Shown here piece by piece: positions 9,267-11,933 of a stretch of 12,500 nucleotides of DNA (within the stretch, counting starts at the first letter, position 1; every line of letters starts with the position of its first letter). A program made the position numbers and the translations under genes. The DNA lies in assembly GCA_050178385.1 (NCBI GenBank), contig JBFXGD010000100.1:1-12500 (forward strand), in the 5' to 3' direction. The notes under the pieces are model-generated. The model was not told where the DNA came from, did not search any database, and was given only the letters and a program-made list of their open reading frames with translations. The stretch is from Calditrichaceae bacterium. Lineage in GTDB: Bacteria > Calditrichota > Calditrichia > Calditrichales > JBFXGD01.

Positions 9267-9329
9267 TTTTAAGCTTGAAAATTTTATATGTGGGATTTTA
9301 GAAAAATGAAAATTTCCGGACTAAATTAT

Positions 9330-9827
9330 ATGATGACAAAGTTTCTTATAATAAGTATAATAATTATGGCGGGAATAACGGCTTGTTCGCAGAAGACCAA
9401 TCATTCGGAAAGGTTAAATGTGAAATATAAAATTCAGAAATCGGACGAGCAGTGGCGTAAAATTCTGACAAATGAACAGTACATCATAACCAGAAAAAAA
9501 GGGACAGAATCTCCATTTTCGGGACAATATAACAACTTTAAAGAACAGGGAATGTTTAAATGTGTATGCTGCGGAAATGAGCTGTTTAGTTCGGAAGCAA
9601 AATATAATTCAGGAAGCGGATGGCCTAGTTTCTGGGCTCCTCTCTCCGATAAAAAAATTATCGAGGATGAAGACCGCAGTTTGTTTATGACAAGAACTGA
9701 AGTAACATGCAGTCAGTGCGGGGCGCATCTTGGACATGTTTTTGATGATGGTCCCGAGCCAACAGGCCTCCGTTATTGTATAAATTCAGCCGCACTAAAG
9801 TTTGCAGGTAATAAAGACGATAAATAG
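9330..9827 (+). CDS. msrB: Peptide-methionine (R)-S-oxide reductase MsrB, predicted lipoprotein
   Basis: W..LT.EQY..TR.KGTE, Zn-binding CVCC and [21 protein letters not shown], catalytic RYCINS. Start placed at ATG 9330/9333 because this gives a lipoprotein signal ending ITA|C; the ORF track starts at 9288. Confidence 0.95.
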
Positions 9828-9860
9828 GAAATGAGATACAAACCGGCACTTAAAATTAAT

Positions 9861-9890
9861 TTGAACTTATCCTGATTCGGTTTGTAAAAT
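9861..9890 (+). promoter_or_regulatory. Putative sigma70 promoter of the downstream small RNA
   Basis: TTGAAC (9861-9866), 18-nt spacer, TAAAAT (9885-9890). It lies ~10 nt before the first hairpin. Confidence 0.55.
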
Positions 9891-9966
9891 AATTTATGCT
9901 GCGCGGGATATTTAACAGGGAAATGTTTTGCGCGATGATTGATGCCCTATGTAAGGAGGTGATCCT

Positions 9967-10011
9967 ATTAGTAGTCAAAGTATGAAAGGAGCCTCCGTCG
10001 AGATCTGCTAG
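9967..10011 (+). CDS. Putative 14-aa small ORF, (M)SSQSMKGASVEIC, with an AUU start
   Basis: ATT lies 6 nt after GGAGGT and the frame is open to TAG 10009-10011. There is an in-frame ATG at 9982 (9 aa), and a TAA closes the frame upstream at 9952-9954. Confidence 0.35.
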   Translation: MSSQSMKGASVEIC

Positions 10012-10037
10012 CACCAGATCCGCGGGTTCCATAAGTT

Positions 10038-10071
10038 AAAAGCCCCCGTTTGTTTCCGGGGGCTTTTTTTT
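10038..10071. terminator. Bidirectional rho-independent terminator
   Basis: AAAAGCCCCCG (10038-10048), 8-nt loop, CGGGGGCTTTT, with a T8 run on + and a T4 run on -. It sits between the RNA/msrB and the convergent GGDEF-EAL gene. Confidence 0.92.
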
Positions 10072-10121
10072 GTTGAAAATGTCAAATCAATTCAATTTAT
10101 ATTGATTGAGAAGATATATTT

Positions 10122-11933
10122 CTAGGAAAATACTGTACTGAGCAGATTTTCTTTCTGTAAATACTTTTCGAACGCGCTGAGAGTTAAAGGCGGGCTGAAT
10201 AAAAATCCCTGGTACTTGCTGCAATTTTGAGATTCAAGAAGATACAAATCTTCCAACTGTTCAATTCCTTCGGCAATGATGTCTTTGTTTAAATCCTGAC
10301 CAAGCTTGATAATTGAATTTACGAGTTCCATGTGTTTGGGATTTGTGCTTATGTGCTTGACGAATGATTTATCAATTTTAATTGTCTGGGCGGTGAATTT
10401 CTGAAGATAAACAAGCGACGCATAGCCGGTTCCAAAGTCATCTATAGCAAGCCTGAAGCCGAGCGAAGATAATTCATTTAAATTTCTGAGAACTTCAATG
10501 TGATTATCCATATAACTTGTTTCGGTTAATTCGATTTGTATCATCCCAGGATCTACATCAAGAACCCGCATCATTTTCTCGATTTTTCGTATCATATTTG
10601 TCGCCTGAAGCTGCTTTGCCGAGAAATTAACGGAGACATACAAACGATCACTATGGCGCGACACTATCTCTTTATAATCTCTGCAAGCTTTATATAAAAT
10701 CCATTCGCCGATAGTCGATATGAGGTTTGATTGTTCAGCTATTGGAATAAAAAGTTCCGGATGAACAACGCCAAGTTCGGGGTGTTTCCAGCGTACCAGT
10801 GCTTCCGAACCAATCGTCTTGTATAAATTTTTAGATATTTTTTCTACAATCGGCTGATATAAAATCTCAAACTGACTTGAAAAATCGTCTTCATTTGAAA
10901 CTCTTCTGAGCGCTTTTTCAATGTTTAATTTCCTGAGCAGCTGTTCTGTCATATTCCTTGAGAAAAACTGAAAGTTGTTTTTGCCTTTTTTCTTCGCGTT
11001 ATACATGGCCGTGTCAGCATTCTGGATGAGCAGTTCATTTGTCGCGCCGTCCTTTGGGAATAATACTATCCCGATACTTATGCTCAGGAATGTTATTTTA
11101 TGACCGGAAATATAATAGGGATCAGCAACATATTGTGTGATTTTTTCAGCTATTTTGCCCGCGTCATAATCCTGATGGACATTTTTGAGTATGACGGAGA
11201 ATTCATCTCCGCCAACTCTGAATACTGAATCTGTTTTACGAACACAAATGCTGATTCTTGATGCCACCTCTTTCAAAATTTTATCACCGACATCATGACC
11301 AAACGAGTCGTTTATTACCTTAAAGTTATCCAGATCACAATATAAAATGGCTGTTATATTCTCCTCGGTGTCTCTCTCGGCATCCATAATGATCTGATTT
11401 ACCACTTCGTAAAACGCGTACCGGTTTTTGAGTCCGGTGAGCATATCGTGATAAGCCTGATATTTAAGCTCTTTTTGACCAAGGATTGTAGAGCTGAGAT
11501 TGGTTCCAAACAGACAAATGCAGGAAATTTTTGTCTGATCTTTATCAGTGAAAATAGGCTGATAGTATCGTTTATAATAGAGGGTCTTTTTTTTGTCAGG
11601 GATATATAATTTTTCAGTAAATTTTATGGTAGTCTTTTCAGCCAGTACGCGTTCAAAATGCGTTTTACGTTTGTTTCCGGATTCTGGTGAAATGCCCATC
11701 ATGGCAAAGTACACGCTATCGTCTTTACCGATGAGCGTATCCCGCCCGAATTCATTAGGGTAATAACTCGCGTTAATAAATTTATATCTCCCTTCAAGAT
11801 CATAAACCGCGATCTCCATCGGGACATTTTTAAATATTTCATATGCTTCGAGCAATTCGACATGGCCGTTTTTAGAATGATTGCTGCCGGAAGTTTTCTG
11901 ACGTCCGGATACTTTTTTGAATAGAGACTGCAT
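10122..11933 (-). CDS. PAS-like sensor GGDEF-EAL diguanylate cyclase/c-di-GMP phosphodiesterase
   Basis: N-terminal PAS-like region (IAVYDLEGRYKFIN...LIGK). GGDEF domain: HDMLTGLKNR, DLDNFKVINDSFGH, RKTD I-site, RVGGDEF. EAL domain: EALVRW, SVNFS, ELTE, IDDFGTGYAS, KIDKSF, AEGIE, QGF. The protein is soluble with no TM helix. Confidence 0.95.
   Translation of the reverse strand: MQSLFKKVSGRQKTSGSNHSKNGHVELLEAYEIFKNVPMEIAVYDLEGRYKFINASYYPNEFGRDTLIGKDDSVYFAMMGISPESGNKRKTHFERVLAEKTTIKFTEKLYIPDKKKTLYYKRYYQPIFTDKDQTKISCICLFGTNLSSTILGQKELKYQAYHDMLTGLKNRYAFYEVVNQIIMDAERDTEENITAILYCDLDNFKVINDSFGHDVGDKILKEVASRISICVRKTDSVFRVGGDEFSVILKNVHQDYDAGKIAEKITQYVADPYYISGHKITFLSISIGIVLFPKDGATNELLIQNADTAMYNAKKKGKNNFQFFSRNMTEQLLRKLNIEKALRRVSNEDDFSSQFEILYQPIVEKISKNLYKTIGSEALVRWKHPELGVVHPELFIPIAEQSNLISTIGEWILYKACRDYKEIVSRHSDRLYVSVNFSAKQLQATNMIRKIEKMMRVLDVDPGMIQIELTETSYMDNHIEVLRNLNELSSLGFRLAIDDFGTGYASLVYLQKFTAQTIKIDKSFVKHISTNPKHMELVNSIIKLGQDLNKDIIAEGIEQLEDLYLLESQNCSKYQGFLFSPPLTLSAFEKYLQKENLLSTVFS

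Follow-up and report, generated by a model that had tools for sequence, protein, structure and literature searches.

Positions 9861-10071 on the + strand of a 12,500-nucleotide (nt) stretch of a Calditrichaceae bacterium genome (contig JBFXGD010000100.1 of assembly GCA_050178385.1; hereafter the window) carry a compact element that lies between a gene for a SelR/MsrB protein (9288-9827, +) and a convergent GGDEF-EAL gene (10122-11933, -). An initial annotation, made from the letters alone, had described a self-contained structured RNA here, and the promoter-like site, hairpins, terminator and 14-mer TAAGGAGGTGATCC that it reported are all present where it placed them. Together with the features that emerged from comparison with homologues, the element comprises, from 5' to 3':

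9861-9890, + strand: promoter-like site, with a -35 box TTGAAC (9861-9866), an 18-nt spacer and a -10 box TAAAAT (9885-9890); 9/12 matches
9901-9933, + strand: hairpin P1, 9901-9913 paired with 9921-9933 around a loop at 9914-9920, with four G-U pairs
9916-9920, + strand: 5' strand of a pseudoknot, in the P1 loop; CAGGG in the family, C-AGGG in the window
9945-9949, + strand: 3' strand of the pseudoknot, CCCUA in the window and CCCUG in the family, 3-6 nt 5' of the Shine-Dalgarno (SD) sequence
9953-9965, + strand: extended SD sequence AAGGAGGUGAUCC, a 13-nt complement of the 3' tail of the 16S rRNA of relatives
9955-9996, + strand: SD-masking helix, GGAGGU (9955-9960) with GCCUCC (9991-9996) and UCCU (9963-9966) with AGGA (9987-9990)
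9967-10011, + strand: short open reading frame (mini-ORF), AUU start codon at 9967-9969, 14 codons (ISSQSMKGASVEIC), UAG stop codon at 10009-10011
9988-10030, + strand: hairpin P3, GGAGCC (9988-9993) with GGUUCC (10025-10030) and GAUCUG (10002-10007) with CAGAUC (10015-10020)
10038-10071, + strand: intrinsic terminator, an 11-bp stem (10038-10067) followed by eight U

We read this locus, with a probability of about 0.68, as the gene for an rre-like, self-masked, ribosome-docking mini-mRNA of ~175 nt. Among the three roles that the initial annotation had offered (capturing or storing ribosomes, sensing initiation, or acting as a gated micro-mRNA), the last is the best fit, as a frame of mostly 13-15 codons is present in 56/56 homologues and a mask over the SD is predicted in 50/56.

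The homologue search proposed with that annotation found the element conserved across phyla, with the SD-like segment kept. The element is single-copy in its own 3.89-Mb assembly, a metagenome-assembled genome (MAG) of 320 contigs. BLASTN located it in 24 of 61 genomes, the window's own included, and a strict pattern search of ~185,000 species genomes returned 52 loci, 45 of which we kept as credible; the seven that were dropped (L037, L040, L047, L051, L054, L072 and L073) were, by eye, chance matches in mostly GC-rich, protein-coding-looking sequence without P1 and P3. The MAGs carrying the kept loci are titled Calditrichia/Caldithrix abyssi, Fibrobacterota/Chitinivibrionales/Chitinispirillaceae, KSB1, Rhodothermaceae, 'Cytophagia', 'Bacteroidetes', Lentisphaerae, Kiritimatiellae, Nitrospinaceae and OM182/Pseudomonadales (Gammaproteobacteria). 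A covariance model, R1, with 147 positions and 26 pairs and giving rough E-values, found the element in 29 of 86 Calditrichota genomes (24 of 55 genera) and in five genomes with other phylum labels, each time as exactly one copy. In the phylum to which a Rhodothermaceae-titled MAG belongs it matched 8/151 genomes (5 strongly, 3 weakly), and in that of a Fibrobacterota-titled MAG 17/121; these genome sets are samples, in which "not found" does not mean absent. With regard to a mobile origin, no match to the element was found in phages or plasmids, and no match to the pattern in IMG/VR. Homologue counts below refer to 56 distinct sequences aligned to the covariance model (alignment A3), excluding the weak model matches L102-L104 and an incomplete second copy in L014. 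In that last locus the element (1461-1606, -) is accompanied, ~105 nt away, by an inverted copy of its first 68 nt (1712-1779, +) that ends at the contig edge, and this is either a genuine inverted duplication or an artefact of assembly. The MAG titled Caldithrix abyssi, a species that has been cultured, has a copy (L075).

The initial annotation had noted that no ordinary gene follows the SD-like stretch. This is true, but a conserved 14-codon ORF from AUU 9967, which it missed, does follow, and across the alignment its start codon stands one base after GAUCC. Frame 0 is open in all 56 homologues, as against 6 and 3 for the two alternative frames. The first codon is ATT in 30 homologues, ATC in 14, ATA in 5 (one of them shifted by +1), ATG in 4, and GTG, TTG or CTC in 1 each, giving a near-cognate AUU, AUC or AUA (AUH) start in 49/56. 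The stop codon (TAG in 36, TAA in 17, TGA in 3) falls in the same alignment column in 50/56. Frames of 13 (23 homologues) or 14 codons (29) make up 52/56, the others having 15 (2), 12 (1) or 19 (1). The distance from the end of the SD to the codon GGA is 18 nt in 23 homologues, 21 in 30, and 24, 30 or 22 in 1 each (the last offset by the shifted start); it is divisible by three in 55/56, with indels in threes. An almost invariant in-frame GGA-GCC-UCC (Gly-Ala-Ser) in the mini-ORF doubles as an internal anti-SD. We infer that the mini-ORF is translated.

Conservation of frame, stop codon and ORF length, with a nearly invariant Gly-Ala/Thr-Ser, would also be expected if the locus were an ordinary gene whose product is a functional micropeptide (13-15 residues, core (I/M/L)-G-(A/T)-S), with RNA structure and SD serving to tune expression. 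Two Ser codons are kept through a codon-family switch, AGU to UCA/UCU, in L029 and L032, and the RreB and RreR peptides are conserved within their own clades (PMC5711450). However, close pairs differ mostly by amino-acid changes (Q/R between the window and L012, S/T and A/T between L014 and L015, C/S between L077 and L078, and four between L086 and L087), and the final three to four residues track the P3 stem, which covaries; on both grounds the frame is conserved more than the peptide. The third positions of GGA GCC UCC are conserved too, as an RNA constraint predicts, and no conserved partner gene lies nearby. We regard a functional micropeptide as unlikely, though as the strongest of the rival readings.

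The 14-mer at 9952-9965 had been taken as a perfect complement of the 16S rRNA 3' end. It is present, but only 13 of its nucleotides form a contiguous complement when the 16S tail of relatives is used. The window's own assembly has no 16S gene; in three Calditrichia relatives, two of which are complete chromosomes titled Calditrichales and Calditrichia, the 16S rRNA ends in ...GGAUCACCUCCUUU|CU, against which the complement spans 9953-9965 and U9952 would face U. The 14-nt complement holds only for an E. coli-type 16S end, which we take to be ...CCUCCUUA. The 14-mer occurs once in the assembly, its reversed control having 0 matches, and sites with one mismatch are limited to two, C170:263-276 (L011) and C21:29642-29655 (L010). 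The L011 site apparently lies inside protein-coding-looking sequence. If one 16S tail is assumed for the whole family (the tail was checked in the three Calditrichia genomes), the contiguous complement is 13 nt long in 21 homologues, 14 in 7, 15 in 13, 16 in 7 and shorter in 8 of the 56, and it never extends beyond GAUCC. The predicted SD:16S duplex reaches -24.7 kcal/mol, compared with values between -8.4 and -12.0 for four further genes in this stretch.

So strong a predicted duplex, along with a weak start codon in 49/56, would suit an untranslated RNA that binds or parks 30S subunits, as a sponge or a sensor, through its SD-like stretch, the ORF being incidental. The alphaproteobacterial mRNA rreB itself localizes mostly to the ribosomal fraction and co-sediments with 30S; it is barely translated, owing to its long SD and GUG start (PMC5711450). 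Nevertheless, it is difficult to account for triplet spacing in 55/56, one frame open in 56/56 against 6 and 3 for the others, and three different stop codons at one position unless the RNA is translated. The element is also a single-copy gene, and overproduction of rreB left growth unaffected, which its authors take as evidence against simple ribosome titration (PMC5711450). A role purely in 30S binding therefore seems to us quite improbable.

The minimum-free-energy fold of the + strand (-62.6 kcal/mol, z -3.47, 0/200 shuffles as good) gives the three hairpins that had been described, and the - strand folds less well (-50.8 kcal/mol). P1 with its four G-U pairs, P3 and the strong terminator are all as reported, whereas the covariation check divided the proposed structure: P1, the pseudoknot and upper P3 covary, and hairpin P2 does not. 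P1 shows compensatory changes in 10/10 pairs counted, with 87.9% of alignment cells paired, and in an alignment-free test its cognate strands pair at -15.1 kcal/mol versus -7.4 for non-cognate strands. The corresponding values for upper P3 are compensatory changes in 8/8 pairs, 74% of cells paired, and -9.5 versus -5.5 kcal/mol. In the pseudoknot, 94.5% of cells are paired and the second pair is AU in 38 homologues, GC in 8, GU in 6 and UA in 1; CGGGG:CCCCG variants occur in L020, L039, L056, L062 and L080, and in the window only AGGG:CCCU (4 bp) is possible. On A3, the observed covariation score is reached by 0/500 shuffles, and slid controls score at most 0.13 versus 0.43. As A3 was fitted to a model holding P1 and P3, it favors these two hairpins; the result of the alignment-free test is in agreement.

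P2, with TGATTG/TAGTCA at its base, is not supported comparatively as first drawn, because its base is only half-paired (52-55% of cells in the 56 homologues) and its apex never varies; it does not clearly exceed shuffles, its covariation score being reached in 12/500 and its number of pairs with changes on both sides in 367/500. What is supported instead is the pseudoknot together with the SD-masking helix. Run on 40 sequences aligned with plain MAFFT, RNAalifold predicts GGAGGU:GCCUCC and UCCUA:UAGGA pairing. On A3, 97% of the cells of this helix are paired. In predicted folds it beats every SD-free alternative in 50/56 homologues, by a mean of -5.4 kcal/mol, fold energies being unreliable for homologues with long P3 inserts. 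In the masked state predicted for the window, only A9953-A9954 of the SD stretch are unpaired, and the start codon of the mini-ORF sits in the apical part of the helix. The stop codon sits in the P3 loop (10008-10014). The masking helix and the base of P3 are mutually exclusive because both use GGAGCCUCC, and single-sequence folds flip between the two. A subgroup of homologues (L041, L043, L046, L053, L061 and L065), whose titles include KSB1, 'Cytophagia' and one Calditrichaceae, stands out by a far longer P3, which contains a conserved insert CUAA..CCAGUUAG..CUAACUAGG and an ATA or ATT start; the model alignment shortens P3 in these sequences.

The element appears to be a free-standing transcription unit, as the initial annotation had proposed, and this is supported by promoter-like boxes, terminators and unrelated neighbors. 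The promoter-like site is present in the window, but the match there is by itself not above chance (6 sites versus 4.9 +/- 2.3 in shuffles). Its support comes instead from conserved position, since a sigma-70-like match of at least 9/12 lies upstream in 32/56 homologues, with the -10 box mostly ending 3-16 nt before the conserved RNA. Transcription is predicted to start near 9897. A hairpin followed by a T-run lies 3' of the element in 46/56 homologues. Among 66 flanking proteins of homologous loci we found no family in common beyond local synteny, and a conserved partner gene sought among these neighbors was not found.

SelR/msrB lies upstream and co-oriented only in the window, L017, L018 and L021, although the upstream gene of L012 is inferred to be msrB too from the likeness of its product to the window protein; the downstream neighbor is co-oriented in 21/32 loci, in some within 1-31 nt. 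Such arrangements might suggest a cis-acting leader-peptide attenuator of the downstream gene, or else the 3' untranslated region and terminator of msrB. But the downstream genes are of unrelated families, the downstream neighbor is convergent in 11/32 loci as well as in the window and L012, msrB is not found at the other loci, and most homologues have promoter-like boxes and a terminator of their own, all of which makes either role very improbable.

Three other readings of the same DNA were rejected or are disfavored. A long ORF from ATG 9936 is broken by a 1-nt indel in a copy from the same genus, and its ATG is not conserved. A minus-strand ORF (9856-10032, 58 aa) is disfavored by covariation, G-U pairs and frame, all of which point to the + strand. 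A minus-strand remnant of a 16S 3' end would match over only 13-14 nt, with flanks that differ by eye. Turning to the flanking genes, the SelR/MsrB protein of the window has an N-terminal extension of ~58 residues with a hydrophobic stretch ending in ...GITAC that resembles a lipoprotein signal, which suggests an exported methionine-sulfoxide reductase. The terminator hairpin, flanked by AAAA (5') and eight T (3'), lies ~50 nt past the stop codon of the GGDEF-EAL gene, and 10038-10071 may also end that transcript, more weakly (four U).

The element RNA has no family in Rfam 15: the window gives 0 matches at gathering score, and in 9780-10130 the terminator accounts for most of the 29 matches with E up to 10. 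Twenty homologous loci compared with Rfam at E up to 0.01 gave only one partial match, to CC2171, and none to Chlorobi-1 or Acido-1. The likeness to these two families that had been suggested extends to general layout only (a stand-alone unit of hairpins followed by a terminator), and we give distant membership almost no credence: at the level of the Rfam models it is refuted, neither Chlorobi-1 (RF01696) nor Acido-1 (RF01686) being among the 29 matches, and their seeds, in the accessible portion of PMC2864571, are two-hairpin motifs of ~45-70 nt. Acido-Lenti-1 was rejected in the same way, by cmscan and by seed sequences; in the accessible portion of supplement file 5 of PMC2864571, the seeds of all three families are short hairpin motifs without AAGGAGGUGAUCC. 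The initial suggestion of an orphan RNA class in a new lineage was right in spirit, but the class differs, being that of the rre small mRNAs.

How such a mini-mRNA might work can be outlined from these features. In the ground state, CCUCC would mask the SD. The 16S tail could then displace this mask, because the intermolecular duplex is predicted to be much stronger (-24.7 kcal/mol) than the masking hairpin (-13.9 kcal/mol), and the 3' strand of P3 would compete for CCUCC as well. Docking would be strong, with productive initiation throttled by the over-long SD helix and by the weak AUH start, a codon class against which IF3 discriminates. As in rreB, what is regulated would be the docking of the RNA on the ribosome and the translation of its mini-ORF there, and a sequence-specific peptide is less likely to be the conserved output than translation as such or turnover coupled to the ribosome.

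A bolder proposal, which we consider speculative and probably wrong, is that ribosome-docking mini-mRNAs form a widespread polyphyletic class in which this FCB-type family is a dedicated sensor of initiation fidelity. The maximal SD would park 30S on an AUH codon, a near-cognate start of the class to which the probable infC start of the host belongs as well, and the reading of the 14 codons, along with RNA survival, would report the status of IF3 or of free 30S. The threshold would be set by the pseudoknot and by a three-way competition in which the SD, CCUCC and the GGRGG-like 3' strand of P3 take part.

As described in PMC5711450, the rreB mRNA is 165 nt long and has a promoter and a terminator of its own. 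Over 17 nt it is complementary to the 16S tail, the last base of this stretch being the G of the GUG start, and it has a short ORF (sORF) of 14 aa. In the predicted structure the complement is unpaired at its first five nucleotides alone, and replacement of the start codon stabilizes the RNA. Analogues (rreR and others) occur in four alphaproteobacterial orders, with rreB in Bradyrhizobiaceae and rreR in Rhodobacterales, and no function is assigned to them there. The family described here shares with the rre mRNAs a free-standing RNA of ~165-175 nt with a promoter-like site and terminator (here by sequence), an SD extended on both sides of AGGAGG that pairs with most of the free 16S tail, and a complement of which the 5' edge alone is unpaired, the rest lying in a conserved hairpin (here predicted). 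Likewise, an sORF of 14-18 codons with a sub-optimal start codon lies behind the extended SD, and genomic context varies between clades. Unlike the rre mRNAs, this family occurs outside Alphaproteobacteria, in Calditrichota among other lineages, adds a pseudoknotted 5' hairpin to the design, masks its SD with an in-frame CCUCC and places its stop codon in a hairpin loop, and its peptide and RNA sequences are unrelated to theirs. Binding to 30S and weak translation are experimental findings for rre, while the family described here is known from sequence alone.

Several points weigh against reading the locus as an rre-like mini-mRNA. [quoted passage not shown] Neither model recognizes the other's family, as RF01867 (CC2171) has no match on the window at E up to 10 and R1 scores at most 16.1 bits on 18 CC2171-type loci. 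The element is missing from most genomes of its own phylum, R1 finding none in the complete genome G003, and it can therefore be no core part of translation. The homologues are related to each other, so our counts overstate the independent support. The masking helix, being almost invariant with one compensatory pair only, is not provable by covariation, and lower P3 is badly aligned (64.9% of cells paired). Finally, the Ser codon switches in L029 and L032 hint at some selection on the peptide, contrary to a pure "act of translation".

CC2171 is a Caulobacter small RNA in Rfam whose expression has been seen by Northern blot also in Methylorubrum (bioRxiv 10.1101/2022.01.24.477521). RF01867 scores 29.1 bits on our homologue L056, below its gathering score of 75. 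It matches 19 loci (L115-L133, G392-G504) in 18 of the 151 genomes sampled, and the model seems too narrow, since 1/19 passes the gathering score. Of these matches, 16/19 have GAAAGGAGGTGATC(C), a 7-nt spacer, GTG or ATG, TCN as second codon and a frame of 14-25 codons; L125 has GATCT instead of GATCC, and most of the frames end, by eye, in a terminator-like hairpin. The Rfam "small RNA" thus carries a short frame and is laid out like an rre mRNA. This SD-spacer-start geometry is shared with the family of our element, and the CC2171 layout fits the rre analogues described in Caulobacterales (PMC5711450). Unlike our element, CC2171 has a canonical GUG or AUG start and is without the P1/pseudoknot domain and the GAS/CCUCC core. 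A peptide fragment that would link CC2171-type ORFs to Sinorhizobium meliloti SEP1 was not found in the portion of the PMC10117765 supplement that was searched.

Near-cognate starts behind extended SDs also recall infC. The host's own infC (G000 contig C55:18548-19048; locus L114, ~1450-1500) has ATC six bases after TAAGGAGA, the AUC coming after UAAGGAGA, and there is no in-frame ATG, GTG or TTG between the TAA stop codon of the upstream gene and the conserved N-terminus of IF3; infC here probably starts at a non-canonical AUC. A non-canonical infC start is the classic case of IF3 autoregulation. In Staphylococcus aureus, non-canonical AUU/AUA starts (infC, cvfC1 and ccpN) are accompanied by extended SDs, and they lower and sensitize translation (PMC13009471). 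Our element resembles such sites in having a near-cognate AUH start and an extended SD that reaches towards the start codon, but those sites head ordinary proteins, while here they head a terminator-bounded frame of 14 codons for which IF3 dependence is conjectured.

In the literature searched, which included few subscription journals, no rre-type RNA is reported outside Alphaproteobacteria, nothing combines an anti-SD, a mini-ORF and non-canonical starts, and the motif itself appears only in primer listings. In PMC5711450, too, rre-type small mRNAs are described from Alphaproteobacteria only, with function unassigned. Read as an unrelated-sequence variant of these mRNAs, the element would place the rre design in a separate family in at least seven differently labeled lineages. 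The recurrence of one design in an unrelated family suggests that cells have repeatedly met some need by docking a tiny, self-masked message on the full 16S tail, and the conserved AUH start and the in-frame anti-SD would offer handles on that need: IF3, free 30S or ribosome-coupled decay.

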